Origin: Chloroflexota bacterium
Lineage (GTDB): Bacteria; Chloroflexota; Limnocylindria; Limnocylindrales; CSP1-4
Direction: 5' to 3'
DNA: 64,000 bases
NCBI GenBank assembly: GCA_003158295.1
Contig: PMIP01000093.1
Coordinates: forward strand, 7,630-71,629
This document shows positions 2,483-18,958 of the stretch, piece after piece (the first letter of the stretch is position 1; each line of letters begins with the position of its first letter). The position numbers and the translations under genes are program-made. The notes beneath the pieces are model-generated. The model was not told the origin of the DNA, ran no database searches, and saw only the letters and a list, made by a program, of their open reading frames with translations.

Positions 2483-2890
2483 GTGTTGCGACCCGAGGAC
2501 GGCATCTACGGCCTTCAGGCCTCGCTCCTCAAGACGATGGCCAGCCCCCGCCGCCTCGAACTGATCCATCTCCTGAGCGAAACCGGCCCGATTGAGGTCA
2601 GGAAGATCGCCGAGCATTTCGGCGATCGCCAGCCGGCGATCTCGCAGCATCTCGCCGCGCTGCGCAGCGTCGGCCTGGTGGAAGCCGTTCGCGACGGGCG
2701 AGAAGTCCGCTATCGACTCGCCGACCCCGAGATCGTGGCCGCTTGCAGCCTGATGCGCCAAGTTCTGATTCGACGGATCGCTCGGCTAGGCGATGTGGCT
2801 GCTGCGTACACCAGCCGATCCGAAGGGACAGAAGGTCAGGTGGGAACGATCGGGCGAGACCCTGTCACGAGCGCATTCCCGCCGAGCTGA
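2483..2890 (+). CDS. ArsR/SmtB family transcriptional regulator
   Basis: 135 aa. LLKTMASPRRLELIHLL...VRKIAEHFGDRQPAISQHLAALRSVGLVEAVRDGREVRYRL is the canonical ArsR wHTH. Single Cys (AACSL). Confidence 0.9.
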   Translation: MLRPEDGIYGLQASLLKTMASPRRLELIHLLSETGPIEVRKIAEHFGDRQPAISQHLAALRSVGLVEAVRDGREVRYRLADPEIVAACSLMRQVLIRRIARLGDVAAAYTSRSEGTEGQVGTIGRDPVTSAFPPS

Positions 2891-2944
2891 GCCCGGTCAC
2901 AACACCCTCGCGAATCAGCCACCTGCAGTAATCGGAGATCAGAG

Positions 2945-3208
2945 ATGAGCGCCCTCAACGTAACCGAGCTCGAAGCCGTCACCGCCGCCGAGATCATCGA
3001 CGCCCGGGGAGCGGCCTGCCCCGGTCCCCTCCTCGACGCCAAGAAGGGGATGGGCAAGATCGCAATCGGCGACGTGATCGAGGTCTGGTCCAGCGATCCG
3101 GCGACGAAGTCCGATATCGGCGCGTGGGCCGGCAAGGTGGGCCACGAGTTCCTCGGCGTCATCGAGGACGACGGCTACGACCGGGTCTTCATTCGACGCG
3201 GCAAGTAG
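2945..3208 (+). CDS. tusA: TusA/SirA-family sulfur carrier protein
   Basis: 87 aa. Active-site Cys-Pro-x-Pro in IDARGAACPGPLL. GGAG RBS 7 nt upstream of the ATG. Confidence 0.85.
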   Translation: MSALNVTELEAVTAAEIIDARGAACPGPLLDAKKGMGKIAIGDVIEVWSSDPATKSDIGAWAGKVGHEFLGVIEDDGYDRVFIRRGK

Positions 3209-3279
3209 CGCGACCGGCGCCGAGCGAGGCAGCGAGACCCTCGCTCGACCGTGCAACGCATCGCAGGAGCACCCGATTG

Positions 3280-3723
3280 ATGACCGCGCTCGCCGCCGCC
3301 CCGGTTGACACCAAGGCGCGGACCGCCGCACCGCGGATTCTCGTCTTCTCGACCAACAACATCTCCGATCCGGGCATCGACCTGGCCGGCAGCGCCCACC
3401 TGCACTACTCGCCCGGAGTGAGGGTCATCAGCCTGCCCTGCACGAGCGGCATTCGGCCGTCGTGGATCCTTCATGCCGTTCAGCAGGGATTCGATGGGGT
3501 CTTCATCGCGTCCGACGGAGACGAATGCGCCTACCTGCCGGATTGCGCCAAGAGGGCGTCGCGCATCGTGGCGGAAGCCCAGACCCTTCTCAAGGCGAAC
3601 GGCTTCGAGGGCCAACGGCTGAAGATGGCGGCCATCTGCTCGGTCTGCGCCGAGAACTTCGCCAAGCACATGACGCAATTCTCGGAGGCGCTCGCCGCGC
3701 TGCCGAGGCCCGGAGCCAACTGA
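3280..3723 (+). CDS. MvhD/FlpD-like (methyl-viologen-reducing hydrogenase delta subunit family) protein
   Basis: Internal ATG of track ORF 3124..3723, with AGGAG upstream. PRILVFSTNNISDPGIDLAG...VRVISLPCTSGIRPSWILHAVQQGFDGVFIASDGDECAYLPDCAKRA matches the family layout. Its stop overlaps the next start (TGATG). Confidence 0.75.
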   Translation: MTALAAAPVDTKARTAAPRILVFSTNNISDPGIDLAGSAHLHYSPGVRVISLPCTSGIRPSWILHAVQQGFDGVFIASDGDECAYLPDCAKRASRIVAEAQTLLKANGFEGQRLKMAAICSVCAENFAKHMTQFSEALAALPRPGAN

Positions 3724-6431
3724 TGACCGATTACGACGCCCTCGTCGTCGGCAGCGGCATCGCCGGCATGGAATCCGCCCTCAAGTTGGGCGACATGGGC
3801 TACAAAGTCTTGCTCGTGGAGAAGGAGGCCAGCGTCGGCGGTCGGATGATCCTGCTCAGCAAGGTCTTCCCCACCCTGGACTGCGCCAGCTGCATCTCTA
3901 CGCCGAAGATGGCCGCCTCGATTCACCATCCGAACGTGACCGCCCTGACCTACACCGAGGTCGACGGCATCTCGCGGGACGGCGACGGCACATTCAAGGC
4001 CACGATCCGCCGGAAGCCGCGCTTCGTGGACGAGGCGGCCTGCACCGGCTGCCAGCTGTGCGAGACGGCCTGCACCGTCGCCGTGCCGGACCAGTTCAAC
4101 GCCGACATGGTCGCGCGCCGGGCCGCGTACATCGCCTTCCCGCAGGCCGTGCCGAAGAAGGCCGTTCTCGAGCGCGCCGGCACCTCGCCGTGTACGTACA
4201 CCTGTCCTGCCGGGATCAAGGCACACGGCTACGTATCGCTCATCCGCAGCGGCGAGTACGAGAAGGCATTCCAGCTCGTTCTGGAAGCGACGCCGCTGGT
4301 CGGCACGCTCGGCCGAGCCTGCTACGCACCTTGCGAGGGCGAATGCACGCGCGGCTCGCTAGAGGGGACACTCCCGATTCGGCGCCTCAAGCGCTTCGCC
4401 GCCGACCGGCACTACCAGGCGATCGATGGGCCCGGCGTTGAGGTCGCGCCGGCCAACGGCAAGGGAGTTGCCGTTGTCGGTTCCGGGCCGGCCGGCCTGA
4501 CCGCCGCCTGGCAGCTCGCCCGCCGGGGTTACCGCGTCAAGATCTTCGAGGCCGCCCCGGTTGCGGGCGGTTTCCTGCGCCTGGCCATTCCCGCGTATCG
4601 TCTGCCGGCCGAGGTCGTGGATCAGGACATCTCCAACGTAACCGGTATCGGCGTCGAGATCGCAACGGACTCGCCTGTCACGGATCTCGAGGCGCTGCGC
4701 CGCGACGGCTTCGATGCTGTGCTCGTGGCGACCGGGACGCCGCTCTCGACCAGCCTGAACGTCCCGGGCGAGAAGCTCGACGGCGTCGTGAGCGGTCTGC
4801 AATTCCTGCGCGCCACCAGGCTCGGCTCCGCGGCTGACCTGACCGGCAAGCGCGTCGTGGTCGTGGGCGGCGGCAACGTCGCCATGGACGCCGCGCGGAC
4901 CGCCGTACGCATGGGCGCCACGGAGACCACGATCGCCTACCGCCGCGGGCGCCAGGAGATGCCGGCCCACAAGACCGAGGTCGACGACGCAGAGCGCGAT
5001 GGCGTCCGTTTCTCGTTCCTGATGGCACCGGTCGAGGTCGTTGACGACGGCTCCGGCAAGGTCACGGGACTGCGGTGCCAGCGCATGGCCCTCGGCAAGC
5101 CGGACGCGTCGGGTCGCAGGCGCCCCGAGCCTATCAAGGGCAGCGAGTTCGTCCTCCCCTGCGACACCGTTCTGGTCGCGATCGGGATGGCGCCCGAAGG
5201 ATCCGCCTTCGGCGGGCGCTGCGCCTCGAACGCAAACGGCACCCTCGTCGCGGATCCGGCAACTCTCCAGACGGGAGTCCCTCACGTGTTCGCAGCTGGC
5301 GACGTCACGACAGGCGCCTCGGACATCACGCGGGCCGTCGGCCAGGGGCGTCGGGCCGCGCACATGATCGACCGCTGGCTGAGGGGCGAGCCTCTCGCCG
5401 GGTTCGAGATGGACGAGGCCCTGCCGGTCGTGGACAAGACGAAGGTTCTGACCCGCCAGGTCGGCTACACGCACAGCACCGCGCCCGAATCCGCGTCCGG
5501 TTCGACCGTCAAGCGGGACTTCGCCGAGATCGAGGCGCCCATGACCGAAGCCGAAGCGCTTGCGGGCTCAAGCGACTGCCTCGACTGCGGCGTCTGCTCC
5601 GAGTGCCAGGAATGCGTTACGGCATGCCCGTCGGATGCGATCCACCTCGACATGCGCGAGCAGATCGAAGAAGTGAGCGTCGGGGCGGTGGTCGTCGCTA
5701 CGGGCTACAAGCTCTTCGCCGCCGACGCCAAGCCCGAGTACGGCTTCGGCCGCTACAAGAACGTGATCACGGGCATGCAGATGGACCGTCTCCTCGCCCC
5801 GACGCGGCCGTACAACACGGTCCTTCGCCCGGGCGACGGCAAGGTTCCCGAGCGGATTGCCTTCATCCTTTGCACCGGCTCACGCGACGAGACTGTCGGC
5901 AACCCTCTCTGCTCGCGGTTCTGCTGCATGTACTCCATCAAGCAGAACCAGCTGATCATGGGAGCTCTGCCGCTGGCCGAAGTCACGGTCCACTACATGG
6001 ACATCCGGGCGCCGGGCAAGCGTTACGACGAGTTCTACGAAAGCGCCAAATCGATGGGCGCCACGTACGTCAAGGGCCGCGTCGCGAAGATCACCGAGAA
6101 GGACGACGGCAACCTGATCCTGCGCTACGAGGACATCGAACACGGCGGGGCGCTCGTCCAGGCCGAGTACGACATGGTCGTCCTGGCAGTGGGCGTCCAG
6201 CCGAACCGGGAGGTCGACCGCCTGTTCAGCGGCGACGATCTCGCGCTCGACGTCTACGACTACGTAGCCGAGCCCAACGAGGACATGGACCCAGGCCGGA
6301 CCAGCATCCCGGGCGTCTTCGTCGCTGGCGCGGCATCAGGTGCCAAGGACATCACGGACTCGATCCTGCACGCCGGAGCGGCCGCAGCTCAAGTGGCAGC
6401 TCACCTGGAGAGCCTGAAGGTGCCGGCATGA
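3723..6431 (+). CDS. hdrA: HdrA-like flavoprotein with an inserted NfnB/GltD-like NAD(P)H:FAD oxidoreductase module
   Basis: Internal ATG of track ORF 3462..6431, 902 aa.
- HdrA parts: DALVVGSGIAGMESAL, CTGCQLCETAC, CLDCGVCSECQECVTACP, CSRFCCMYSIKQ, IPGVFVAGAASG.
- Residues ~153-560 match the GltD/NfnB small-subunit pattern: SPCTYTCPAG...GRACYAPCEGECTRG, VAVVGSGPAGL, RVVVVGGGNVAMD, VFAAGDV. Confidence 0.85.
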   Translation: MTDYDALVVGSGIAGMESALKLGDMGYKVLLVEKEASVGGRMILLSKVFPTLDCASCISTPKMAASIHHPNVTALTYTEVDGISRDGDGTFKATIRRKPRFVDEAACTGCQLCETACTVAVPDQFNADMVARRAAYIAFPQAVPKKAVLERAGTSPCTYTCPAGIKAHGYVSLIRSGEYEKAFQLVLEATPLVGTLGRACYAPCEGECTRGSLEGTLPIRRLKRFAADRHYQAIDGPGVEVAPANGKGVAVVGSGPAGLTAAWQLARRGYRVKIFEAAPVAGGFLRLAIPAYRLPAEVVDQDISNVTGIGVEIATDSPVTDLEALRRDGFDAVLVATGTPLSTSLNVPGEKLDGVVSGLQFLRATRLGSAADLTGKRVVVVGGGNVAMDAARTAVRMGATETTIAYRRGRQEMPAHKTEVDDAERDGVRFSFLMAPVEVVDDGSGKVTGLRCQRMALGKPDASGRRRPEPIKGSEFVLPCDTVLVAIGMAPEGSAFGGRCASNANGTLVADPATLQTGVPHVFAAGDVTTGASDITRAVGQGRRAAHMIDRWLRGEPLAGFEMDEALPVVDKTKVLTRQVGYTHSTAPESASGSTVKRDFAEIEAPMTEAEALAGSSDCLDCGVCSECQECVTACPSDAIHLDMREQIEEVSVGAVVVATGYKLFAADAKPEYGFGRYKNVITGMQMDRLLAPTRPYNTVLRPGDGKVPERIAFILCTGSRDETVGNPLCSRFCCMYSIKQNQLIMGALPLAEVTVHYMDIRAPGKRYDEFYESAKSMGATYVKGRVAKITEKDDGNLILRYEDIEHGGALVQAEYDMVVLAVGVQPNREVDRLFSGDDLALDVYDYVAEPNEDMDPGRTSIPGVFVAGAASGAKDITDSILHAGAAAAQVAAHLESLKVPA

Positions 6432-8170
6432 GTAAGCAGCCAGCAAGCGAGCGGCGGCTCGGCGTCTACGTCTGCCACTGCGGTGGAAACATCTCCGACT
6501 ATGTAGACGTGCAAGCCGTCGTCGACGCCGTGAAAGACGAGCCCGGCGTGGTCGTGGCGAAACACACCATGTTCGCCTGCTCGGATGCGGGCCAGCAGGA
6601 GATGGAAGAGGACATCGCCGCCAACGATCTGGACGGTCTGGTCGTGGCCTCGTGCTCGCCCAAGCTCCACGTCGTGACGTTCCGGGGCGTGGCCAAGCGG
6701 TCCGGCATGAACCCCTACGAGTACAACCAGGCCAACATCCGCGAGCAATGCTCCTGGACCCACACGGATGACCCGGCCGGTGCCACGAGCAAGGCCATCG
6801 GCCTGGTCCGGGGCGTCATAGCGCGCACCCGTCTTTCCGAAGCGCTCGAGCCGCTCGTCGTCGAGACTACGCAGAAAGCGCTCATCATCGGCGGTGGGGT
6901 CGCTGGTCTGAGAGCAGCCATCGGCCTGGCGGACATCGGGCTCGGCGTATTCCTTGTGGAGCGCGAGGCCGAGCTGGGTGGTTGGGTTGGACGGTTCGGT
7001 CCGATCTACCCGCACGAACGCAATGGCCACGAGCTGATCTCCAGCCTGATCGAGGAGGCCAGGAAGCGGCCGGCGATCAAGATCTTCACCGGAGCCGAAA
7101 TCGTCAGCAAGACCGGCAGCTTCGGCAACTACGCGGTGGGCGTCCGAGTCGCGACCGAACCGCCCCAGACGATTCAGATTGAAGTCGGCTCGATCATCGT
7201 CGCCACCGGCTTCGACTCGTATCGACCGGCCGACGGGGAGTTCGGCAGCGGCATGGACGGCGTCGCCACCCTGCCCGAGTTCAAGGAGTTGATCGATGCC
7301 GCCGCGGGAGCGGGCCTGCGCTATCGGGGCAAACCGGTCCGGAGCCTGGCCTACATCTACTGCGTCGGGAGCCGCCAGCCCGACGGCAACGAGTACTGCT
7401 CGCGCTTCTGCTGCACCGCGACGGCGCATGCCTCGATCCGCGTCGCCGAACTGGACCCGAATGTCCGCCAGTACCACCTGTATCGCGACATCCGGACCTA
7501 CGGTGCATTTGAGCTGCTGTATACCCAGGCGCGCAAAGACGGGGCGATCTACGTCAAGTTCCCCGACGACGCGCCGCCGGTCGTGGCCGCTGACAAGTCC
7601 GGTGGGCTGACCGTCACCGTCCGAGACCTGCTCTCCGGTGACGAAGAGCTGGAGATCCCGGTCGATTTGGTGGTCCAGGTGACCGGCATGGTGCCTCGGG
7701 CGAACACGGACCTCGTCGGCCTCCTCAAGCTGCCACTGGGCAAAGACGGTTTCTTCAACGAGATCCACCCGAAGCTGCGGCCGGTGGAGACCATGGTCGA
7801 CGGTGTGCTCATCGCCGGGGCATGCCAGGGACCCAAGAGCTCGGCCGAGAGCGTGGCTTCGGGTCTGGCTGCGGTCACGCAGAGCGCGTCCGTACTCAAG
7901 AAGGGTTCGGCCGAGCTGGATCCACTCGTCGCCACGGTCGATCCGGACGCTTGCACGTGGTGCGGCAAATGTCTCGACGCGTGCCCATACGGCGCCATCG
8001 AGCAGCTTTCGCTCAACGGCCGCGAGGTCGCGACGATAAGCGTGGCCGGCTGCAAGGGCTGCGGCGGATGCGTCCCGGTGTGCCCAGAGAACGCCATCGA
8101 CCTGCGCGGCTACACCGACGCCCAGATCACGGCGATGATCGACGGCCTGCTCCAGGAGGCCATCGCATGA
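6428..8170 (+). CDS. hdrA: HdrA-like flavoprotein, full-length type (N-terminal 4-Cys domain, FAD domain, C-terminal 2x[4Fe-4S] ferredoxin domain)
   Basis: Internal ATG of track ORF 5075..8170, with ATGA overlap on the previous stop. Motifs: VYVCHCGGNISD...FACSD...ASCSPK, ALIIGGGVAGLRAA, CSRFCCTATAH, CTWCGKCLDACP and CKGCGGCVPVCP. Confidence 0.9.
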   Translation: MSKQPASERRLGVYVCHCGGNISDYVDVQAVVDAVKDEPGVVVAKHTMFACSDAGQQEMEEDIAANDLDGLVVASCSPKLHVVTFRGVAKRSGMNPYEYNQANIREQCSWTHTDDPAGATSKAIGLVRGVIARTRLSEALEPLVVETTQKALIIGGGVAGLRAAIGLADIGLGVFLVEREAELGGWVGRFGPIYPHERNGHELISSLIEEARKRPAIKIFTGAEIVSKTGSFGNYAVGVRVATEPPQTIQIEVGSIIVATGFDSYRPADGEFGSGMDGVATLPEFKELIDAAAGAGLRYRGKPVRSLAYIYCVGSRQPDGNEYCSRFCCTATAHASIRVAELDPNVRQYHLYRDIRTYGAFELLYTQARKDGAIYVKFPDDAPPVVAADKSGGLTVTVRDLLSGDEELEIPVDLVVQVTGMVPRANTDLVGLLKLPLGKDGFFNEIHPKLRPVETMVDGVLIAGACQGPKSSAESVASGLAAVTQSASVLKKGSAELDPLVATVDPDACTWCGKCLDACPYGAIEQLSLNGREVATISVAGCKGCGGCVPVCPENAIDLRGYTDAQITAMIDGLLQEAIA

Positions 8171-8418
8171 CCGCAGTCAAACGGGAGATCAGGGAGATCG
8201 TCCGCGAGGAGCCGTTTATGCGGGGCCGGATCCTTGCAGCCCTCGCCGAAGGGCCCCACACAGTCCCGGAGATCGCCGAAGCTATCGGTCGGCCGGCCAA
8301 TGAGGCGATGTACTGGGTCATGGGGATGCGCCGCTACGGCTGGGTCCGTGAAGTCAAGGAAGCCGCGGTGGATGGCTACTTTCGATACCAGGCAGTAGCC
8401 AGGGAGCAGCGGTCATGA
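8167..8418 (+). CDS. Small (83 aa) winged-helix-like protein embedded in the hdr/qmo-like operon
   Basis: ATGA overlaps at both ends (8167-8170 and 8415-8418). RGRILAALAEGPHTVPEIAEAIGRPANEAMYWVMGMRRYGWV looks like an HTH plus wing. Confidence 0.65.
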   Translation: MTAVKREIREIVREEPFMRGRILAALAEGPHTVPEIAEAIGRPANEAMYWVMGMRRYGWVREVKEAAVDGYFRYQAVAREQRS

Positions 8419-9554
8419 CGACTCGCGTCGACCGAAACCTCTACCCCGAACTGCAGCGCTACGGCGCCACAGACATCTCGGCCTGCTTCAACTGCGGAGT
8501 CTGCACCGCGATCTGCCCTCTTTCCGTCGACGGAGCGTCGTTCCCGCGGCGGATGTCGCGCTACGCCCAGCTGGGGATGCGAGAGAAGCTCCTCTCCAGC
8601 CCCGAACTGTGGTCGTGCTACGGCTGCTCAGAGTGCACGGATTCATGCCCGACCCAGGCCGACCCGGCCTCGTTCATGGCCGCGGCTCGCCGCTACGCCG
8701 TAGCCAGCTACGACCGGACCCATCTGGCCCATTACCTGGCCACCTCGAAGGTCTTCGCCCTCGTCTTCGTGACAGCCCTGGTCGGGTTGCTGGCGGCGTT
8801 CATGTACTCCGTCCACAAACCCGTCGACGGCTCGACGCTGGCCTTCTTCGACTTCGTTCCCTCCGATGCGATCCACAACATGGGCATCGCCGTCATGGCG
8901 ATCATGGGAGCGGCCGCCCTGATCGGGCTCCTGGAGATGGTCCGGCGTGTCTTGCGCGGCCCCGCCACGGGCGCGGCGAAGGCCACGGTTCGTAAGACGG
9001 CGGACGCAGCCTGGAACGCCGCGGCCGTGGAGTCGTTGGCCCAGACCCGCTTCCGCCAAGACTGCGCCGACGCCACCGAGACCCGGCCGTGGTATTCCCA
9101 GCGCTGGTTCATCCACTTCGCCACGATGTGGGGCTTCCTGGGCCTGCTCGGCGCCACGATGCTCGACTACGGGCTGGAGTTGGCGGGCCTGAAGGCGACC
9201 GGAACGCCGGTGCCGATCTGGTATCCGGTCCGAGTGCTCGGCACGCTGGCCGGCGCCGCGCTGATCTACGGCACAACGGTCCTCATCGTCCGCAGGCTGC
9301 GCCGCAGCGACCGTTCGAGCCTACACTCGACAACGTCCGACTGGACGTTCCTGTCGATGCTGTGGATCGCCGGCGTGACCGGCTTCATCCTGGAGCTCGG
9401 GCTCTATCTTCCCAGCGCGCCGTCATGGGGTTATCCGATGTTCCTGGTCCACGTCGCGGTAGCGATGGCCCTCGTGCTGTTGGTCCCGTTCGGCAAATTC
9501 GCGCACGTCCTGTACCGTCCGGTCGCGCTCTTCGCCATCCGGTTGCGGGGCTAG
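8415..9554 (+). CDS. QmoC-like subunit: HdrC-like 2x[4Fe-4S] domain fused to an HdrE/NarI-like six-helix cytochrome b domain
   Basis: 379 aa. CFNCGVCTAICP and CYGCSECTDSCP are followed by six hydrophobic helices with conserved His (IHNMG, IHFATMWG, LVHVAV, FAHVLY). Confidence 0.8.
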   Translation: MTTRVDRNLYPELQRYGATDISACFNCGVCTAICPLSVDGASFPRRMSRYAQLGMREKLLSSPELWSCYGCSECTDSCPTQADPASFMAAARRYAVASYDRTHLAHYLATSKVFALVFVTALVGLLAAFMYSVHKPVDGSTLAFFDFVPSDAIHNMGIAVMAIMGAAALIGLLEMVRRVLRGPATGAAKATVRKTADAAWNAAAVESLAQTRFRQDCADATETRPWYSQRWFIHFATMWGFLGLLGATMLDYGLELAGLKATGTPVPIWYPVRVLGTLAGAALIYGTTVLIVRRLRRSDRSSLHSTTSDWTFLSMLWIAGVTGFILELGLYLPSAPSWGYPMFLVHVAVAMALVLLVPFGKFAHVLYRPVALFAIRLRG

Positions 9555-9564
9555 GAGGCTGATC

Positions 9565-10146
9565 ATGGCGAGCAAGCGAAGGAACGGAGGCCCGGGTTCG
9601 CGTTCGGCCGCGCCGGTCAGCCGAGGCAGGGCCGCGCCGGTCAGCCGAGGCAGGGCCGCGCCGGCCGCCACGGACCGGAACAGGCTCTACCTGGCTATCG
9701 CCGGCGGTGCCTTGGCCTTGCTGGCCGCGTTCGCGATCGCTTTCGTCGCGCTCGCCGGCGGCGGTTCCAAGGCCGCGCCCAGCCTGTCCACCGGCCAGAC
9801 GATCGTCCAGGGCCAGGGGGGCCAATGGACCAACGTCACGCCGGACCGGCTGGCCCAGATGATTCAAAGCAAGGACTTCACGCTGGTGAACGTCAAGACG
9901 CCCTACATCGGCGAGATCGATGGCACCGACCTCTACATCCCGTACGACCAGCTCACCGCCCGCGCCTCGGAGCTGCCTTCCACCAAGTCGGCCAAGATCC
10001 TGGTCTACTGCCGCAGCGGGGCGGAGAGCGCCCAGGCCGCGCAAACGCTCCTGAACCTCGGCTACACCAACCTCTGGAACCTCGATGGCGGCATGAATGC
10101 CTGGCAGGCGTCCGGGCGGACCCTGGTCCAGAAGAACCGCCAGTAG
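9565..10146 (+). CDS. Membrane-anchored rhodanese-domain sulfurtransferase
   Basis: 193 aa. AGGAGG RBS. One TM helix (LYLAIAGGALALLAAFAIAFVAL). Rhodanese active-site loop YCRSGAES and GGMNAW. Confidence 0.85.
   Translation: MASKRRNGGPGSRSAAPVSRGRAAPVSRGRAAPAATDRNRLYLAIAGGALALLAAFAIAFVALAGGGSKAAPSLSTGQTIVQGQGGQWTNVTPDRLAQMIQSKDFTLVNVKTPYIGEIDGTDLYIPYDQLTARASELPSTKSAKILVYCRSGAESAQAAQTLLNLGYTNLWNLDGGMNAWQASGRTLVQKNRQ
9607..9664 (+). repeat. 24-nt tandem direct repeat (2.4 copies) inside the rhodanese gene
   Basis: gccgcgccggtcagccgaggcagg occurs exactly twice (9607-9630 and 9631-9654), plus 10 nt of a third copy. It encodes AAPVSRGR-AAPVSRGR-AAP in the cytoplasmic tail. Confidence 0.95.
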
Positions 10147-11785: not shown

Positions 11786-12268
11786 TCAGTAAACCCAGGG
11801 CAGAAGCCGCTTGGTGTGGCTGCGGTAGTTGTCGTAGTCAGCGAACTGGTCGGTCAGCCAGATCTCCTCACGCCGCGACTTTAGGTTGAAGAAGGCGGCG
11901 AGGACGAGGGCGCCGAGAAGGGCGAGCGGCGAAGCTGTCCACAGGCCCCAGCCCGCGGCGCCCAGGATCAGGCCGCCGTAGATGGGGTGGCGAACCAGAC
12001 TGTACGCACCCGACTCGACCAGGCGAGCCCCCGCCAGCGGCCTCGGGAACGGCGTCAGGTTCTCCCGGAGGTCGAACAGGCCTCGCAGTGCCAGGATGGC
12101 CCCACAGCCGATGAGCAGCAGGCCGGCCGTCATTCCGACTGGGAGCGCCGACCCGCCCCAGGCGGGACCTACTCTCCCGGCAAGGGCGATGCCGGCAAAG
12201 AGGACCAGCTGGATCAGGAACCACCCCTGGCCCCGGCTGCCCAGGTCCGGGAGCCGCGACGCCCTCAC
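11786..12268 (-). CDS. Isoprenylcysteine carboxyl methyltransferase (ICMT/PEMT-like) family membrane methyltransferase
   Basis: 160 aa, multi-TM. LVESGAYSLVRHPIYGG...EE..L...F..Y..Y is the family signature. Confidence 0.75.
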   Translation of the reverse strand: MRASRLPDLGSRGQGWFLIQLVLFAGIALAGRVGPAWGGSALPVGMTAGLLLIGCGAILALRGLFDLRENLTPFPRPLAGARLVESGAYSLVRHPIYGGLILGAAGWGLWTASPLALLGALVLAAFFNLKSRREEIWLTDQFADYDNYRSHTKRLLPWVY

Positions 12269-12271
12269 CGC

Positions 12272-12781
12272 CTAGCCCGCAAGGTTTGGCTGTCGCTGTC
12301 CCAGGGCATCCGGATCGGCGTGAGGTCCCGTAACGACGACCTCGCCCTCGATCGGAGCCGCGCCGCCGAGGATGCGGAATCGGTGATGAATCTCGACTGT
12401 GCCCGCCGAGAGCATCGCCGCCACTGAGCAGTACCTGGTGGCCGAGAGCTCGATCGCCCGTCGTACCGCGGACTCGTCGATGGCTGGACCCTCCACGATG
12501 TGGATCACGTCTGCGCTCGTGTAGATGGCCGGCTGGCGGTCGTCGCGCTGGTTCGCTGTGACCGAGACCTCGTAACGGGTCACGACTTGCCGCTTCTTCT
12601 GGAGGATCGACATCACGTCCATGCCGGTGCAACCGACCTGGCCGACGAGCAGCATCTCCACGGGGCGCGGGCCGGCGTTGCCGTCGGCGTCGTCCAGCAC
12701 GATCTCGTGGCCGGATCCGGTCCGAACGGTGAAGCGCATGCCGGGCCCGTCGAAGCGGGCTACGGACGACTTGACGATCAC
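12272..12781 (-). CDS. OsmC/Ohr family peroxiredoxin-like protein
   Basis: 169 aa. Both family cysteines are in context (LVGQVGCTGMDV and ELSATRYCSV). GTGA overlap with the upstream methyltransferase stop. Confidence 0.8.
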   Translation of the reverse strand: MIVKSSVARFDGPGMRFTVRTGSGHEIVLDDADGNAGPRPVEMLLVGQVGCTGMDVMSILQKKRQVVTRYEVSVTANQRDDRQPAIYTSADVIHIVEGPAIDESAVRRAIELSATRYCSVAAMLSAGTVEIHHRFRILGGAAPIEGEVVVTGPHADPDALGQRQPNLAG

Positions 12782-13404
12782 TGGGGATTCTCCTTGGAAA
12801 CGGGACGGCGGACGATCAGAAGCGAGTCGATTGGGCCTCGGCCCGGAGGCGGAACACGGCGGACGACTTCCGCTCGCTCGACTTCGAGCGACGGATCGGC
12901 TACCAGGAGGTCGGCTGCGATCTCGTCCGCGGTGAACAGCCTCTGGGGATCGGGTCCACCCTCACCTTCCGTGGCGTTCAGGCGGTCATGGCCGATCACG
13001 AGCAGCCGGCCGCCCGGGGCCACGGCGGCCGCCGCTCCGGCGTAGATGGGCCGGCGTTCGTCCGGCGGCACGTGCAGGTAGACGATGGCTACGAGGTCGA
13101 ACGACCGGGCCGGGGGAGTCCAGTCGAACAGGTTGCGCTCCAGCCACTCGACCGAGACACCGGCGGCATCCGCTTTCGCCCGTCCGTTGGCAAGCCCGAC
13201 CGGCGACCAGTCCACGGCGGTTGTGCGCCACCCCTGCGCGGCCAGCCAGACGGCGTTTGTGCCGCTTCCGGCGGCCAGCTCGAGAGCGGTGCCGCGCGAC
13301 AGGCCGGAGGCGCCCAGTACGAGCGTCGGATTCGGTCCCTCGCCCTCGAAATCGCCCGCCTGGTGTCGAGTGTCCCACTGGATTCGGCGCTCGTCGGCTA
13401 CCAC
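12778..13404 (-). CDS. Class I SAM-dependent methyltransferase (TehB/TPMT-like)
   Basis: 208 aa. ALELAAGSGTNAVWLAAQGWRTTAVDWS (motif I) and later LLVIGH. Confidence 0.8.
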   Translation of the reverse strand: MVADERRIQWDTRHQAGDFEGEGPNPTLVLGASGLSRGTALELAAGSGTNAVWLAAQGWRTTAVDWSPVGLANGRAKADAAGVSVEWLERNLFDWTPPARSFDLVAIVYLHVPPDERRPIYAGAAAAVAPGGRLLVIGHDRLNATEGEGGPDPQRLFTADEIAADLLVADPSLEVERAEVVRRVPPPGRGPIDSLLIVRRPVSKENPQ

Positions 13405-13407
13405 GAT

Positions 13408-13746
13408 CTACTCCCTCTCCAGCGGCCGATTGGTTCGAGCCCAGGCATCCGTTCCGCCACGGACCGAGGCCGCGCCCTCGAATCCCGACGTCAACAGGAA
13501 ATCCGTCGCGGCAAGGCTCCGACTGCCGCTCTCGCAGATGATGAGGATTCGCTTGTCTCGGGGGAGGTCGGCGGCTTGCCGAGCGAACTGGCTCAGAGGG
13601 ACGTTGAGCGCGCCGGGGACGCGACCCCGTCGATACTCCCAGGCCTCACGGACATCCACCAGGCGAACTCCGCCGTCGCGCAGGAATTCGTCGAGCTCTT
13701 CGACGCTTATCTCGGGCGTGGCCCGGCGAGAGAACGACTGCACCAT
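13408..13746 (-). CDS. Single-domain rhodanese sulfurtransferase
   Basis: Internal ATG of track ORF 13408..13956. LVDVREAWEYRRGRVPGALNVPL...ILIICESGSRSLAA...GGTDAW. Confidence 0.85.
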   Translation of the reverse strand: MVQSFSRRATPEISVEELDEFLRDGGVRLVDVREAWEYRRGRVPGALNVPLSQFARQAADLPRDKRILIICESGSRSLAATDFLLTSGFEGAASVRGGTDAWARTNRPLERE

Positions 13747-13786
13747 CTGCTCTAGCTCCGTACGGGGTTTACGTGCTTCCTTCTTC

Positions 13787-14071
13787 TCAGTTGGCGAGCA
13801 GGCCGAGCGCGCTGTCGATCCGAGCCTGGTCGAAACCCACGATCGGGCTACCGTCGACCTCGATGACCGGCACGCCCATCTGCCCGGTCCGGCGCACCAG
13901 ATTTCGCGCGGCCGCCGGGTCGCGGCTGACATCCACGTCGCGGAACGGAACCCCACGGGTGCGGAGATACGTCTTGGCGCGCATGCACCAGACGCACGTG
14001 GGCGACGAGTAGACGATGACGCGATGCGTCCCGCCCGTGGAAGTGGCCTTATGCGAGAGGTAGCTACCCAT
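13787..14071 (-). CDS. Glutaredoxin-like (NrdH/YruB-type) protein
   Basis: Internal ATG of track ORF 13787..14230. VIVYSSPTCVWCMRAKTYL (CxxC) ...GVPVIEVDG. Confidence 0.8.
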   Translation of the reverse strand: MGSYLSHKATSTGGTHRVIVYSSPTCVWCMRAKTYLRTRGVPFRDVDVSRDPAAARNLVRRTGQMGVPVIEVDGSPIVGFDQARIDSALGLLAN

Positions 14072-14475
14072 CAGTCCGACTCCAGAGATGCGATTACCCG
14101 GCCGAGACGCTCTCGAGCCTCCGCGGCCACATTCTTGACTTCGATCGATTCGGCGATCCCGACGACCGCCAGGGGATCCATGGCCTCGACGATGGTGTCC
14201 ACGCCTTCCTGACGCAGGACTACGTTGCATGGCAGCAGCACGCCGACCGACGGCTCCGCTTCGAGCGCCCGGTGCGCCAGAACAGGATTGCAGGCGCCCA
14301 GGATCAGGTAGGGCGCCCCGTCAACGCCGAGCTTCGCCTTCATCGTCGCTGCGACGTCGATCTCGGTCAGGACCCCAAAGCCCTCGGCCTGGAGGGCAGC
14401 CTCTACCCGCGGTCGTGCCGCAGAAACGGGGCCGCCCAGTCGAATCCCGAGCGTGTAGCCGGAAGCATTGGTCAT
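14071..14475 (-). CDS. DUF302 domain protein
   Basis: Internal ATG of track ORF 14071..14568. FGVLTEIDVAATMKAKLG...YLILGACNPVLAHRAL...GVLLPCNVVL matches the family pattern. Confidence 0.75.
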   Translation of the reverse strand: MTNASGYTLGIRLGGPVSAARPRVEAALQAEGFGVLTEIDVAATMKAKLGVDGAPYLILGACNPVLAHRALEAEPSVGVLLPCNVVLRQEGVDTIVEAMDPLAVVGIAESIEVKNVAAEARERLGRVIASLESD

Positions 14476-14682
14476 GATCGGCTCGACCCGGCGGCAGCAC
14501 CGACTGGCCGCGCGAGATTGGACGACCAGCTTCTCGCCGGCCGCTTGAGATCTGTGAGAACCCTGCATACCTCGGCAAGGAGCCTGTTTCGCTCCGGGTC
14601 CCGATTCGCCTTATCTTTCATCGGTGCCTCTTGCGCGCCTCACCAGCAAGGTCGCTTGCCTGGCACACTAACACTTATTGCG

Positions 14683-14696
14683 TACTTGCGCAAGTA
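14683..14696. promoter_or_regulatory. 14-bp perfect palindrome TACTTGCGCAAGTA in the divergent DUF302/TauE control region
   Basis: Read directly. It is flanked at a distance by an 8-bp inverted pair, CCTTATCT (14609-14616) and AGATAAGG (14699-14706). Confidence 0.35.
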
Positions 14697-14737
14697 ACAG
14701 ATAAGGACCAGACCTTGTCGATCCGAACCCCCGGCCG

Positions 14738-15580
14738 ATGACCCCGCAGGCCGACTTCGGCATATTCGCCGTCAGCGTGTGCGCCGGCCTGATCGGATCG
14801 CTGGCCGGAGTTGGGGGAGGGATTCTCGTGATCCCCGCCCTGACCTTCGTGTTCGGCGTGGACATCCACCTCGCCGTCGGCGCCAGCATCGTGTCCGTGA
14901 TCGCGACGAGTTCCGGGGCCGCGGCGGCGTACGTCCGGGACCGCATGACCGATATGAGAATCGGCATGTTCCTGGAGCTGGCAACCACCACGGGGGCGGT
15001 GACGGGAGCGTTGCTGGCCGCCGTGGTGGCGCCGGCGTTCCTGTACGTCCTTCTGGGTGTGGTCTTGCTCGGCTCGGCTGCCATGCACGCAGGACGGCTG
15101 AACGAGGAGACGCCGCCGGCAGAACCGCCGTCGCGGATTGCCGCGGCGATGAAACTGAGCTCGTCCTATCCGGACCACCGGCTTGGCCGCGAGGTTCCCT
15201 ACACCGCTCGGCGCGTGCCGCTCGGCTTCGCGCTGATGTGGATAGCCGGGGTCGTGTCGGGGCTGCTTGGCATCGGATCGGGTGTTCTCAAAGTACTCGC
15301 CATGGACGGAGCGATGCGTCTGCCGATGAAGGTCAGCTCGGCCACGAGCAACTTCATGATCGGGGTCACGGCCGCGGCCTCGGCCGGGATCTACCTGGGG
15401 CGCGGCGACGTCGATCCGCAGATCGCGGCGCCGGTTGCGCTCGGCGTGCTGGCTGGAGCGCTGATTGGGGCTCGGCTGCTCAACCGGGTATCGAACCGCG
15501 CGGTTCGGCTGGTCTTCCTGCCTGTGCTCGTGGCCGTGGGTATCGAGACCATTGGCCGCGGATTGGGGTTCGGACTATGA
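14738..15580 (+). CDS. TauE/SafE (DUF81) family sulfite/organosulfur anion exporter
   Basis: 280 aa, about 8 TM. Gly-rich repeats GSLAGVGGGILVIP and GLLGIGSGVL. Confidence 0.8.
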   Translation: MTPQADFGIFAVSVCAGLIGSLAGVGGGILVIPALTFVFGVDIHLAVGASIVSVIATSSGAAAAYVRDRMTDMRIGMFLELATTTGAVTGALLAAVVAPAFLYVLLGVVLLGSAAMHAGRLNEETPPAEPPSRIAAAMKLSSSYPDHRLGREVPYTARRVPLGFALMWIAGVVSGLLGIGSGVLKVLAMDGAMRLPMKVSSATSNFMIGVTAAASAGIYLGRGDVDPQIAAPVALGVLAGALIGARLLNRVSNRAVRLVFLPVLVAVGIETIGRGLGFGL

Positions 15581-15939
15581 GCCCGCAGCGCTTTCGCCTG
15601 ATGGTGAGCCTGGTCCTGGCGGTGGGCGTGGGCGTAAGCGCCACCCTCATCGGCGCGGGCTTCGTTGCGGCCCTGGCAGTCGGCTGGCAGGGGTCGCTTG
15701 TCGGGGTGACCACGACGGCGAGCGCGCCGACCACCGACTTCGGCGGGCTGACCTCCCGCTTGGGAATCCTGGAGCCGCTCGCCATCGCCCAGCTCGGACT
15801 TCTGACGCTGCTGGCCACGCCCGTAGTGCGAGTGGCGGCGTCGGTGGTCGCGTTCGCGTCCGAGGGCGACCGCCTCTACACCGCGATCACGGCAGTCGTG
15901 CTGGCGATTCTGCTGGCGAGCATATTCCTGCTGCGCTAG
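15577..15939 (+). CDS. DUF1634 membrane protein (usual TauE partner)
   Basis: Internal ATG of shadow ORF 14779..15939, with ATGA overlap on the tauE stop. Three hydrophobic helices and TPVVRVAASVVAF. Confidence 0.65.
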   Translation: MSPQRFRLMVSLVLAVGVGVSATLIGAGFVAALAVGWQGSLVGVTTTASAPTTDFGGLTSRLGILEPLAIAQLGLLTLLATPVVRVAASVVAFASEGDRLYTAITAVVLAILLASIFLLR

Positions 15940-15996
15940 AGCGACGCCCTGTTGCCCGGCGGCACGCCCACCGGACCCGGGCAGGTCGAAGCTCGC

Positions 15997-16527
15997 CTAG
16001 ATGAAGAGCGTGGAGTCGGCCTCGGTCATGAGCTGGAGCGCCGTGGCTGCCCCGACGGGTTCTTCCATGCCATCGAGCAGGTCTTCGCGCCGCAGGCCGA
16101 ACATGTCCATGGTCATCTGGCACGGATAGAACTTGACCCCGAGAGCCATGGACATCTCGAGCAGATCCTTGGGCTTGGAGACGTTGTACTTCTTGGCGAG
16201 CTGGAACATCATCCACGGCCCCATGCCCATGAAGTTCATCTTGCTCAAGGGTCGGTGGCTGACGCCGGGCCGCTTCATGAAGGACATCATCTTCTGCATC
16301 CAGTTCTGGCCGGTGATGCGCTTCTTGTCCTTCACGAAGGTCTGAAGGCCCCAGAAGGTGACGAAGACCGAGGTCTCCATCTCCATGGCCGCGGCGGTGG
16401 AGGTCAGGATCATCGTCGCCCAGGTCTTCTCCAGCTCGCCGCTGTAGTCGATGATGACTAACTTCTTGGTCTTGATGGCGCCTTCGGACGAGGTCTGGAT
16501 CACGGGGGCGGTTGCGACGGCGGACAT
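15997..16527 (-). CDS. DsrE/DsrF-like (DrsE_2) family protein
   Basis: Internal ATG of track ORF 15997..16776, with AAAGGAAC RBS. KLVIIDYSGELEKTWATMILTSTAAAMEMETSVFVTFWGL...VKFYPCQMTMDMFG. Confidence 0.75.
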   Translation of the reverse strand: MSAVATAPVIQTSSEGAIKTKKLVIIDYSGELEKTWATMILTSTAAAMEMETSVFVTFWGLQTFVKDKKRITGQNWMQKMMSFMKRPGVSHRPLSKMNFMGMGPWMMFQLAKKYNVSKPKDLLEMSMALGVKFYPCQMTMDMFGLRREDLLDGMEEPVGAATALQLMTEADSTLFI

Positions 16528-16586
16528 TGGATCGTTCCTTTCGCGGCCAGCGGATCGCCTGCCTCGGCGTCCCCGCGGAGGCGCTG

Positions 16587-16823
16587 CTACTTGTGTCGAA
16601 ACACGAAGCGGTACTTGCCATCGGCCGAGTCGGACTCGACGAGAGCGTTGCCGGTCGAACCGGCCCATGCCGCGAAGTCCTTGACCGAGCCGGGATCCGT
16701 AGCGACGACCTCGATCAGCTCCCCGGAGGCGACGGTCCTGATCGCCTGGGTCGCCTTGAGAATCGGCAGCGGGCACGATAGGCCGGTTGCGTCGACCTTG
16801 AGCTTGATGTCGAGATTGCCCAC
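16587..16823 (-). CDS. tusA: TusA/SirA-family sulfur carrier protein
   Basis: 78 aa. VDATGLSCPLPILK (Cys-Pro-x-Pro) and ATDPGSVKDFAAWA. Confidence 0.85.
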   Translation of the reverse strand: MGNLDIKLKVDATGLSCPLPILKATQAIRTVASGELIEVVATDPGSVKDFAAWAGSTGNALVESDSADGKYRFVFRHK

Positions 16824-16887
16824 GCGATCTGCTCCTTGCTGGTTCGTGGCCGATCCGCTTCGCTCTCTCAGCGGTTGGATCGGCTGG

Positions 16888-17301
16888 CTAGATGAATACG
16901 ATCTGGCCCTCGCCGGCGTTGATGTAGAAGGCGGCCACGCCTTCGATACCGTTCACCAGGGGATCGAGATCCGACTGCTTGAGCTTCAGGAGATCCATCG
17001 ATGCCGAGCAGGCCTGGATGTCTACCTCGCCGAGCTCCTTGGCCATGCGCAGCGCGTCGGCCCAATGGGCCTGGCCTGTCCTTGCGGCAGCGTCGAACGC
17101 GAGCTTGCCGGCCTCTCCGGCCTCGGGCGCAAGGCCGTGATCGGCCGCGATCCGGTCGGCCCGGAACGCGTTCAGACCCCAGTACTGCAGGAAGATCTTC
17201 ACCGGCTTGCCGAGGGCGGCCGCACCGGCGACGAGGGTCGCGGCGGCCTGGAGCTTATCGTCCGTGCCGGAGAAGAGCACCAGGGAGATCGTTTCGTCCA
17301 T
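16888..17301 (-). CDS. DsrE/DsrF-like (DrsE_2) family protein
   Basis: 137 aa. ISLVLFSGTDDKLQAAATLVAGAAALGKPVKIFLQYWGL...VDIQACSASMDLL. Confidence 0.75.
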   Translation of the reverse strand: MDETISLVLFSGTDDKLQAAATLVAGAAALGKPVKIFLQYWGLNAFRADRIAADHGLAPEAGEAGKLAFDAAARTGQAHWADALRMAKELGEVDIQACSASMDLLKLKQSDLDPLVNGIEGVAAFYINAGEGQIVFI

Positions 17302-17309
17302 GGTTGGCC

Positions 17310-17690
17310 TCAGCTGATTGTCTGGTTGGCGGCGGCCGCGGACGCACGTCCTGCGAGCACTTCGGCCGGGGTTCGCGTGGCTGCCTGGGAGATTCGCGAG
17401 AGCCTGCGCACGAGCACGCCGCGCATCGTTTCGCAGGCGCAGATGATCTCGGGGTCGCTCAGGCGGTAGTGGACCTCACGGCCCACCCGCTCTGATTCGA
17501 CGACGCCCGCCGACCGCATCAACGCCAGGTGCTGGGAGACGTTGGGCTGGCTGATCCCAAGCTCTTCAGCCAGCCTGCTTACCTCGTGCGGACCCTCGGC
17601 CAGAAGGTGGATGATCTCGAGCCTCTTGGGGTTTGCGAGCGTCTTGAGCACTTCCGCTTGGAGTCGGTACACCTCGTCCATGCCAGGCAT
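17310..17690 (-). CDS. ArsR/SmtB family transcriptional regulator (paralog of 2483..2890)
   Basis: 126 aa. LKTLANPKRLEIIHLL...VSRLAEELGISQPNVSQHLALMRSAGVVESERVGREVHYRL. CxC pair (IICACE). Confidence 0.9.
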   Translation of the reverse strand: MPGMDEVYRLQAEVLKTLANPKRLEIIHLLAEGPHEVSRLAEELGISQPNVSQHLALMRSAGVVESERVGREVHYRLSDPEIICACETMRGVLVRRLSRISQAATRTPAEVLAGRASAAAANQTIS

Positions 17691-17699
17691 TCTTGGTCA

Positions 17700-17717
17700 T
17701 ATGCGCAGGTGCGCATA
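17700..17717. promoter_or_regulatory. Candidate operator: perfect 8-2-8 palindrome TATGCGCA-GG-TGCGCATA
   Basis: Read directly. It lies 10 nt upstream of the arsR start codon at 17690. Confidence 0.45.
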
Positions 17718-17857
17718 GGTACAGGGGTCCCCAGCTTGCGGGCCGAATGGCACGCCGACCGGCATGAGCATGCATCTACGGACCGCTTGACCCGGCACTA
17801 CGGGCGCGAACTGGCCGTGGCGCCTGACGAATGACTACAGGCCTGCACCCGCTCGGC

Positions 17858-18958
17858 TCAGCAGATGCGGGGCAGCTGCTCCCCCACGAGCATGTCCACG
17901 ATCCGCTGCGAGCCCACGATCGTGCGCATCGCGACCATTCCCGGATGGTCCGCCACGACGCGGCCGATCTCCACGGCCTCCACTCCCTGAGGGACGGCGC
18001 GCATGGCCGCCAGAACGGCCTCGGCCGAGGAGGCGGGCACGACGGCCACGAGCTTGCCCTCGTTGGCGACGTGGAGCGGATCCAGGCCGAGCATCTCGCA
18101 GGCGGCGCGAACGGGTCCGGGGATCGGGATAGTCTCCTCGCGAAGGTCTATGCCTACACCGGAGGCGGTCGCGATCTCATTGAGCGCCGACGCCAGGCCG
18201 CCCCGCGTCGGGTCGCGCAGGACGCGCACCTCCGGGCAGGCTGCCACGATCGCGGCCACAAGCCCGTTCAGCGGTTGGGTGTCCGAGGCGATCTCCACCT
18301 CGAAGTCGAGCCCCTCGCGAACGCTCATGATCGCGACGCCGTGCAGGCCGATCGGGCCGGACAGGATGAGGGCGTCCCCGACTGAGGCGCGATCGGCCCC
18401 CACGGTCACTCCAGTGGCAACCAGCCCGATGCCGGCGGTGTTGACGAAGAGCCCGTCCGCCGCCCCACGACCGACCACCTTGGTGTCGCCGGTGACGATT
18501 CGAACCCCCGCCCGAACGGCGGCCCGAGCGACCGACTCGGTCACCTTCTGCAGCTCCTCCATCGGCAGTCCTTCTTCGATCACGTAGGCAAGCGAGAGCG
18601 CCAGCGGCTGGGCGCCCATCATTGCCAGGTCGTTGACGGTGCCGTTGACCGCCAGCTCCCCGATGTCGCCGCCGGGGAACTCGAGCGGGCTGACGACGAA
18701 CGAATCGGTCGTGAAGGCGAGGCGCTGGCCGGCGACCTCCACTACGGCCGCATCGTTCAATGGACCGCCTGGGGCGGCGGCGGCCAGGGCCGGTCCGATC
18801 ACGTCGCGCATCAGCGCCGCCGAGAGTTGGCCGCCCGACCCATGGCCGAGCAGGACCCGAGCCAGTTCGGGGATCGGGGCCGGGCAGACCAGGTTCGCCG
18901 GATCCGGGGCATCCGCAGGCGACCCGAAGGGATCCGCCACTGGCCGTCGCTCGCTCAC
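17858..18958 (-). CDS. hypE: [NiFe]-hydrogenase maturation protein HypE
   Basis: AIR-synthase-like fold motifs and the C-terminal ...GEQLPRIC. I place the start at GTG 18958, which makes a GTGA overlap with the hypD stop. The track ORF extends to 19039. Confidence 0.9.

Follow-up and report, generated by a model that had tools for sequence, protein, structure and literature searches.

Why would a bacterium keep a set of sulfur-carrier proteins, together with their repressor and an exporter, when no sulfur-oxidizing enzyme can be recognized beside them? The question is raised by a stretch of 64,000 nucleotides (nt), the window, from a Chloroflexota bacterium of the class Limnocylindria, whose uncultured members abound in peat, soil and freshwater. 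The window lies on contig C31 of an assembly of 2.72 Mb in 101 contigs, with a completeness of 84.85%. Between positions 14,738 and 17,690 it holds two convergent gene sets, tauE-DUF1634 on the plus strand and arsR-dsrE-tusA-dsrE on the minus strand, which we call the island. We propose that the island regulates itself and serves as a relay for sulfane sulfur, that is, sulfur bound to another sulfur atom; that the relay has lost its original sulfur source, sulfide:quinone reductase (SQR); and that it is now likely partnered by a Qmo-like membrane complex encoded 6 kb away. We put the probability of this reading at about 0.6. Comparison of related genomes demonstrates four points of it: descent from an sqr operon, an operator shared with tauE, selection on the carrier genes, and co-occurrence of the carriers with the Qmo-like complex.

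Genes were called with a codon-usage model trained on the organism's own genome and then checked against Pfam, which bears out the gene content that a preliminary description had given for both sets. The carrier operon, in order of transcription, is as follows.

17310-17681, minus strand: ArsR2, a repressor of the ArsR/SmtB family (Pfam HTH_5, 62 bits)
16888-17301, minus strand: DsrE-like carrier DsrE137, 137 amino acids (aa) (PF13686 DrsE_2, 58 bits, cut-off 25; motif IQACSAS, Cys98)
16587-16823, minus strand: TusA (TusA2) (PF01206, 76 bits, cut-off 28.6; motif CPLP, Cys17)
15997-16527, minus strand: DsrE-like carrier DsrE176, 176 aa (PF13686 DrsE_2, 151 bits, cut-off 25; motif YPCQMT, Cys136), here the terminal gene of the operon

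The ATG at 17690 is probably not the true start of ArsR2, because its orthologues begin at MDEVY. The cysteine contexts YPCQMT and IQACSAS, described earlier as conserved, are indeed so: C98 of DsrE137 and C136 of DsrE176 are each kept in 75/75 orthologous modules, C136 being also invariant in 24 distant representatives, and C17 of TusA is kept in 72/72 aligned rows of these modules. Many distant relatives of DsrE176 (rows P0158, P0164, P0171-P0178 and others) are C-terminal domains of proteins of ~800-830 aa, which we assume may be fusions of a pyridine-nucleotide-disulfide reductase with a rhodanese. The label of a DsrE3/TusA relay has to be given up, as both DsrE proteins of the window are DsrE2-like, neither DsrE3 nor DsrE2 equivalogs. 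Against the NCBIfam model for the sulfur carrier protein DsrE2 (NF047629), DsrE176 scores 79 bits and DsrE137 28 bits, both under the cut-off of 210. The best solved relative of DsrE176 is 3PNX (E 1.5e-20) and that of DsrE137 is 2QS7 (E 3e-18), with the active cysteine aligned in both cases; 2QS7 is DsrE2B of Saccharolobus solfataricus (PMC11094781). From what is known of these families (PMC11094781), DsrE137, TusA and DsrE176 would each carry sulfur as a cysteine persulfide and hand it onward.

Where did such a relay come from? We sampled related loci, one genome per species, and obtained 80 loci with a relative of DsrE176 at 63-90% identity (80 of more than 567 loci); by their titles, 79 belong to Chloroflexota and one to Solirubrobacterales. 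Beside dsrE176, tusA is present in 80/80, dsrE137 in 78/80 and arsR in 73/80 of these loci. Clustering of the neighboring genes finds, in about 50 of the 80, a second tusA and the gene for a 385-aa flavoprotein following dsrE176. The best solved relatives of this flavoprotein are human SQOR (E 4e-31) and bacterial SQRs, and its best NCBIfam model is type III SQR, with 336 bits, under the selenoprotein-subtype cut-off; these matches identify it as a sulfide:quinone reductase. In Limnocylindria the operon most commonly reads arsR-dsrE137-tusA-dsrE176-tusA-sqr. Many sqr-bearing relatives (L039, L041, L042, L059, L063 and others) also encode, at about positions 1-5 kb of each locus and upstream of arsR, a fusion protein that binds FeS and NAD, the small subunit of a hydrogenase, a [NiFe] large subunit and a small unknown product, a set similar to that of group 3b (sulfhydrogenase-like) hydrogenases.

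The closest relatives of the window (L009-L036 and L050) have no tusA-sqr tail. Their operon is met by a convergent DUF1634-tauE pair, followed by a methyltransferase-OsmC-PEMT block and the Qmo-like operon. There is no SQR orthologue in five close relatives of the same layout and no relic of sqr in the window. In the congener G037 (L100:1070-1985), sqr is broken over three frames, with its first ~66 codons missing, and lies directly upstream of the orthologue of the methyltransferase at 12778-13404 of the window; it has the look of a remnant of the lost gene in the course of decay. These comparisons show the island as a remnant of the class-wide sqr operon, in which four genes and the operator are conserved, and they indicate that the tusA-sqr tail is lost in the window's genus, a real loss and no assembly gap. 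Hence the lack of a catalyst reflects a lost operon tail rather than a design. Three loci (L014, L064 and L082) hold both sqr and tauE-DUF1634; therefore, the exporter is not a substitute for sqr. The genes left behind appear not to be decaying. Across ten sqr-less loci, the median pairwise dN/dS (ratio of nonsynonymous to synonymous substitution rates) is 0.14 for DsrE137, 0.19 for TusA and 0.21 for DsrE176, and because of these values and the invariant active cysteines, we regard all three as functional genes under purifying selection.

The second line of evidence is regulatory and joins the exporter to the carriers. The features concerned are the following.

17702-17715, no strand assigned: operator 1, TGCGCA-CC-TGCGCA, the core of a perfect 8-2-8 palindrome at 17700-17717, 21 nt 5' of the arsR start
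14679-14692, no strand assigned: operator 2, TGCGTA-CT-TGCGCA, in the divergent tauE/DUF302 promoter region, 45 nt 5' of tauE
14738-15580, plus strand: TauE/SafE (TSUP) membrane transporter (PF01925, 170 bits, profile positions 1-236 of 237)
15577-15939, plus strand: DUF1634 small membrane protein (PF07843, 74 bits); its start overlaps the tauE stop, and the two are translationally coupled
11786-14475, minus strand: operon of DUF302, YruB-type glutaredoxin (Grx), rhodanese (Rhd, 112 aa), S-adenosylmethionine (SAM) methyltransferase, OsmC and PEMT/ICMT-type membrane methyltransferase (Pfam and NCBIfam), divergent from tauE, with operator 2 in common

The pattern TGCG[CT]A-NN-TGCGCA has three sites in the whole genome, against ~0.5 expected, and two of them are in the island. 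The third (C91:149483, L008:4484) lies in a weakly coding stretch 3' of a TldD/PmbA-like open reading frame, without sulfur genes, and is probably a chance match. With one mismatch allowed, the 80 related loci and the window together have 74 operator sites, of which about 56 sit 2-21 nt before arsR orthologues and about 14 at the tauE-side promoter, with a handful elsewhere. About 14 of the related loci keep operator 2 (TGCGCAAGTACGCA on the opposite strand), 40-67 nt ahead of tauE or of the Rhd, Grx or unknown gene that occupies the place of tauE. ArsR2 probably autoregulates. Because the conserved operator precedes both arsR and tauE, the comparative evidence is good that tauE-DUF1634 belongs to the same predicted regulon as the carriers; the divergent DUF302-PEMT operon is probably a member as well. 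A consensus scan of 14400-17900 gave no sigma-70-like promoter and no terminators above those of shuffled sequences, such a scan being uninformative for a high-GC Chloroflexota genome.

What ArsR2 may sense is suggested by its cysteines. It scores 94 bits with the NCBIfam model HTH_metalloreg (cut-off 55) and 63.9 bits with the BigR equivalog, under the cut-off of 155, and BigR and SqrR are among its top solved relatives in the PDB. Cys83, in helix alpha-5, is present in 74/74 orthologues, and no second cysteine is conserved: at the alpha-2/3 position that matches the second cysteine of BigR and SqrR, 29/74 orthologues have cysteine and the window has histidine. The window's protein has a local C-A-C, of which the extra C81 is rare among orthologues. 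By these features, ArsR2 stands outside the two-cysteine persulfide sensors of the BigR/SqrR type yet is probably similar in action. It would bind TGCGCA-N2-TGCGCA at its own promoter and the predicted site at the tauE/DUF302 promoter, and would be released upon persulfidation or bridging of its single invariant cysteine, C83. In some close relatives a third ArsR paralogue, which keeps the alpha-5 cysteine, lies between tauE and the DUF302/rhodanese operon (L011:11869-12237, L013:14730-15065, L021:16149-16523, L024, L034 and L036); the window is without it.

Could the missing catalyst be elsewhere in the genome? The preliminary description recognized none in the window, and this holds and extends genome-wide to SQR, persulfide dioxygenase, Sox, Dsr and sHdr, nothing having been found that would account for the carriers. 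Family searches of the whole assembly, 84.85% complete, gave no SoxY, no DsrC, no NIR_SIR-type sulfite or nitrite reductase of any kind and no AprA above noise; the SUOX fold is represented by a single protein of 210 aa. The single gene of the GCV_H family is on contig C72, which has no CCG (HdrB-type) match, and a shdrC1B1AHC2B2 cluster, with two HdrB-type and two HdrC-type subunits and LbpA, was not found in the assembly. A tblastn search with five SQR orthologues gave no match in this genome, and since the genome is incomplete, the absence of SQR is supported mainly by its near-complete relatives. The 18 Pyr_redox_2 matches considered as SQR candidates turned out to be TrxR-like, GltD-like, lipoamide-dehydrogenase-like or HdrA-like, and of 10 MBL-fold matches considered as persulfide dioxygenases, the best two are B3-lactamase-like in one case and a glyoxalase II of the YcbL type in the other. 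Apart from a GlcD-like fusion, the only CCG domains are those of one hdrCBA-mvhDGA operon, on contig C97; the reported lack of HdrB and HdrC is therefore true of the window and not of the genome. The lack of a NIR_SIR match at this completeness hints that the organism is incapable of sulfate assimilation and relies on reduced sulfur.

This leaves the complex encoded 6 kb from the carriers, previously singled out as the only candidate redox machine.

2483-10146, plus strand: Qmo-like operon, comprising arsR1, tusA1, mvhD, hdrA/gltD fusion, qmoB-like gene, small helix-turn-helix gene, qmoC-like gene and rhodanese (144 aa) (Pfam)

For a class profile, the same 121 Limnocylindria genomes were queried with four proteins (DsrE176, SQR, QmoC-like and DUF1634), and HdrB was profiled likewise. 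DsrE176 is present in 51 genomes; SQR is present in 43 and the QmoC-like protein in 17, all of them within those 51. Eight DsrE176 genomes have no intact sqr (the window's own genome, G000, and G019, G025, G037, G082, G091, G028 and G077), and the Qmo-like complex is present in 8/8. In each of the 51 carrier genomes, at least one of SQR and the Qmo-like complex is present. Fisher tests on this profile are formally strong; kin are not independent, and the tests carry no correction for kinship. One unpublished genome (G101) is counted among the 51 and the 43, and its removal alters nothing; another (G092) gave only a weak DUF1634 match and was left out of the counts, and our conclusions are independent of it. 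Operon structure points the same way. Eight of the ten Qmo-like operons fetched from other genera, as well as that of L042, open with arsR-dsrE-tusA, followed by mvhD-hdrA, and in a quick tree the DsrE137 clade of the module has the DsrE proteins of these operons as its nearest relatives. The Qmo-like operon of the window has no dsrE, and the DsrE137 gene is 6 kb off. The suggestion that the two loci form one system is borne out by the profile (17/17 Qmo-like genomes with DsrE176, and 8/8 sqr-less genomes with the complex) and by the arsR-dsrE-tusA head in other genera; a common operator was not found. As for the complex being the only candidate, its co-occurrence with the carriers stands, but the HdrABC-Mvh system on C97 is correlated with them too.

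We therefore picture the relay as follows. Without SQR, it would draw its sulfur from the surroundings or from metabolism, the candidates being polysulfides of the peat, the breakdown of cysteine, and the two rhodaneses. Judging from co-occurrence, its likeliest redox partner would be the NAD(P)H- and quinone-linked membrane complex of the Qmo/Hdr type, which comes with a TusA and a rhodanese of its own and, in other genera, with a carrier of the DsrE137 type as well. The complex would exchange electrons with carrier-bound sulfur, and our favored guess on the direction is that this sulfur would be reduced to sulfide. TauE-DUF1634 would carry a sulfur anion across the membrane.

Several observations weigh against this picture. 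First, the eight sqr-less genomes represent only about three lineages (g1, g5 and g27), and the contig of G028 stops just past dsrE176; because of this, the argument from exclusivity is weak once kinship is allowed for. Second, the carrier and Qmo-like loci are unlinked except in genus g1, G008 and L042. The Qmo-like operon has an ArsR paralogue of its own, arsR1, upstream of which neither a TGCGCA-type nor any other shared palindrome was found in the window and eight orthologous operons, and this speaks against a single regulon with the carriers. Third, Pfam finds no recognizable sulfur-reactive catalytic subunit in the complex, that is, no CCG/HdrB domain and no AprAB, and HdrABC-Mvh is similarly restricted to carrier genomes. 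Fourth, G082 and G091 are without tauE-DUF1634, which makes the exporter dispensable, and ArsR2 does not have the two-cysteine pair of all proven persulfide sensors. The link between the two loci is one of association, and it is by association only that the carriers and the Qmo-like complex would be one system.

Among other explanations, stand-alone buffering or detoxification of sulfane sulfur survives best, although we consider it unlikely. Here the carriers would need no dedicated redox enzyme: they would take up persulfide or polysulfide sulfur and pass it on to small thiols, glutaredoxin or the co-regulated methyltransferases, so that volatile methylated sulfur forms, and TauE-DUF1634 would export the product. 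The sharing of operator 2 between tauE and the divergent DUF302-Grx-rhodanese-methyltransferase-OsmC-PEMT operon would fit such a function, but the methyltransferases match no known model of a sulfide or thiol methyltransferase. The Qmo-like complex is missing from 34/51 carrier genomes, as buffering would allow; however, all 34 have SQR, so that one or the other accompanies the carriers in every case. The island is also like the dsrE/tusA/rhodanese/tauE sets in the sulfide-stress clusters of Bacillus licheniformis and Staphylococcus aureus (PMC9918477), but buffering would leave the dsrE-tusA genes within the Qmo-like operons themselves unexplained.

Somewhat less likely again, yet kept as a serious rival or as a co-partner of the carriers, is the HdrABC-MvhADG hydrogenase of contig C97. 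In this explanation, HdrB would use electrons from H2 to reduce a carrier persulfide or a carrier-carrier disulfide, and the nearby hyp genes would serve to mature the hydrogenase. HdrB is a proven disulfide-reducing subunit, and the Qmo-like complex is without one; in this genome HdrB is the sole disulfide-reducing subunit of the CCG type besides the GlcD-like fusion. The genes form the operon hdrC-hdrB-hdrA-mvhD-mvhG-mvhA-hycI-hypA (L003:4198-11929, minus strand), which is on a separate contig and does not adjoin carrier genes. In itself, this operon is a conventional Mvh-linked Hdr with a group 3c-type [NiFe] hydrogenase, in a non-methanogen in which no DsrC was found. HdrB orthologues are present in 11/121 genomes, 11/11 of them DsrE176-positive, and in 6/8 of the sqr-less genomes, but 40/51 carrier genomes have no HdrB orthologue. 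In the window, hypFCDE lies directly upstream of arsR2 on the same strand (Pfam), and hyp genes are within 10 kb of the module in 22-29/80 related loci; this adjacency is lineage-specific. Two of the sqr-less genomes, G082 and G091, have the carriers and the Qmo-like complex without a detectable HdrB, which therefore favors the Qmo-like complex as the partner.

Far less probable than either is an assembly artefact, in which a conventional sqr, pdo or shdr would be within the unassembled ~15% of the genome. The completeness of 84.85% would permit this, and the carrier contig of G028, which ends after dsrE176, shows that a break can hide a downstream sqr. In the window, however, the convergent tauE follows the operon on the same contig, leaving neither space for sqr nor a relic of it; the five close relatives, without an SQR orthologue, share this layout, the genomes of the sqr-less congeners that the class sample includes have a completeness of 91-94%, and decay of sqr is visible in G037. 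TusA has biosynthetic sulfur roles in E. coli, and a supply of sulfur to molybdenum cofactor, to the thiolation of tRNA or to Fe-S clusters, in an organism unable to reduce sulfate, for which the lack of any NIR_SIR-type sulfite reductase match in the genome and the resemblance of the rhodaneses to those of MoeB/MoeZ could speak, is equally improbable, as an autoregulated repressor with a stress-type regulon (OsmC, glutaredoxin and exporter) is unlike housekeeping, the class-wide operon partner is SQR and no biosynthetic enzyme, and the module is absent from 70/121 class genomes.

To what extent is the proposed system, a sulfane-sulfur relay partnered by the Qmo-like complex, new? The carrier operon itself is not, as a smaller SQR-TusA-DsrE2 operon has been published (PMC10205796): MFUM_v2_0219-0221 of Methylacidiphilum fumariolicum SolV encodes a type III SQR, TusA and DsrE2 and is ~1.7-fold up in sulfide-adapted cells. 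The Limnocylindria six-gene sqr operon, the SolV operon and the window have the same DsrE2-like and TusA carriers and, within the class, the same ArsR and operator, whereas the window and its genus are without the second tusA and sqr, genome-wide, and have the convergent tauE-DUF1634 instead. What is new here is the sqr-less form of the operon and its link to the Qmo-like complex; in the literature on QmoC with TusA, DsrE and HdrA, and on Limnocylindria with sulfide, we found no description of this arrangement.

Other known systems share parts of the island. The cluster yrkD-yrkE(dsrE)-yrkF(rhd)-yrkH(pdo)-yrkI(tusA)-yrkJ(tauE)...sqr-pdo of B. licheniformis and the cst operon of S. aureus give inducible protection against sulfide and sulfane sulfur (PMC9918477). 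They have in common with the window a repressor, sulfane-sulfur-responsive in these Firmicutes, together with DsrE, TusA, rhodanese and TauE; however, their regulators are of the CsoR/CstR type and that of the window is of the ArsR type, and SQR and persulfide dioxygenase were not found in our genome. Because both enzymes are missing, TauE has no evident source of sulfite. In the carrier sets associated with sHdr, TusA goes with DsrE2, DsrE3A, DsrE3B or DsrE3C, for example in Metallosphaera cuprina and Hyphomicrobium denitrificans (PMC11094781). Two DsrE-family proteins and TusA near a complex of the heterodisulfide-reductase type are common to these sets and the window, but neither the window nor the genome has an sHdrB1/B2 or sHdrC1/C2 cluster, the carriers are DsrE2-like rather than DsrE3, and the neighboring complex is of the Qmo type, with a membrane QmoC and an NAD(P)H module. 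With QmoABC of sulfate reducers and Chlorobi, this complex shares two HdrA-like flavoproteins and a QmoC-type FeS/heme-b membrane subunit; it differs in that no AprAB was found in the genome, in its separate MvhD, its GltD-like NAD(P)H module fused to HdrA and its internal small helix-turn-helix gene, and in an operon headed by tusA and, in most genera, also dsrE. As for the regulator, in BigR/SqrR-type sensors the cysteine pair of helices alpha-2 and alpha-5 forms a di- to tetrasulfide bridge. ArsR2 has in common with BigR, SqrR, YgaV, sHdrR and SoxR the winged-helix ArsR fold, a palindromic operator at its own promoter and predicted sulfur-handling targets, but not this pair, only the alpha-5 Cys83 being invariant.

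The island offers a natural experiment, in which one genus dropped the sulfide oxidase and retained the carriers, repressor and exporter under selection. It also gives a specific functional hypothesis for a widespread and unstudied Hdr/Qmo-type complex, namely that its substrate is carrier-bound sulfur. Going further, we tentatively suggest, as a possibility we would sooner doubt than believe, that in the sqr-less lineages the DsrE2/TusA relay has been rewired to this NAD(P)H/quinone-linked complex, which in that case would be a new kind of membrane oxidoreductase, acting on persulfide bound to the proteins TusA or DsrE and tying sulfane sulfur to the quinone and pyridine-nucleotide pools without a known sulfur-converting subunit. 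For the regulator, we obtain a clean predicted operator and regulon of an ArsR-type protein without the cysteine pair of all proven persulfide sensors. What Limnocylindria do with sulfide and sulfane sulfur matters for the turnover of sulfur and carbon in anoxic soils.

The exporter and the divergent operon deserve a few further remarks. In the related loci, tauE is within 10 kb of the module in 19-20/80, and orthologues of DUF1634 occur in 19/121 class genomes, 17 of these 19 being DsrE176-positive. The inclusion of a sulfite exporter in the proposed system is upheld in so far as tauE has an ArsR operator; its substrate is another matter, since no sulfite-forming enzyme was found in the genome, and for this reason we take "sulfite exporter" as only a family name here. 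Dissulfuribacter is reported to have more of a TauE and a "co-occurring transmembrane protein" when it disproportionates thiosulfate (PMC13490349), and this may be the same pair as TauE-DUF1634. The block from DUF302 to PEMT is syntenic across the sqr-less clade, and both rhodaneses of the window resemble the rhodanese domains of MoeB and MoeZ. In the minus-strand operon, a cytosolic SAM methyltransferase and a membrane methyltransferase of the PEMT/ICMT family flank OsmC (11786-13404). These two may methylate sulfide or thiols, an activity like that of MddA or MddH, although neither matched any known sulfide or thiol methyltransferase model in NCBIfam. In one genome of the class (G058:C32:9868-10221, L089), the DUF1634 orthologue, a marker of tauE-DUF1634, lies ~6 kb upstream of the Qmo-like operon, and the sqr operon is on another contig.

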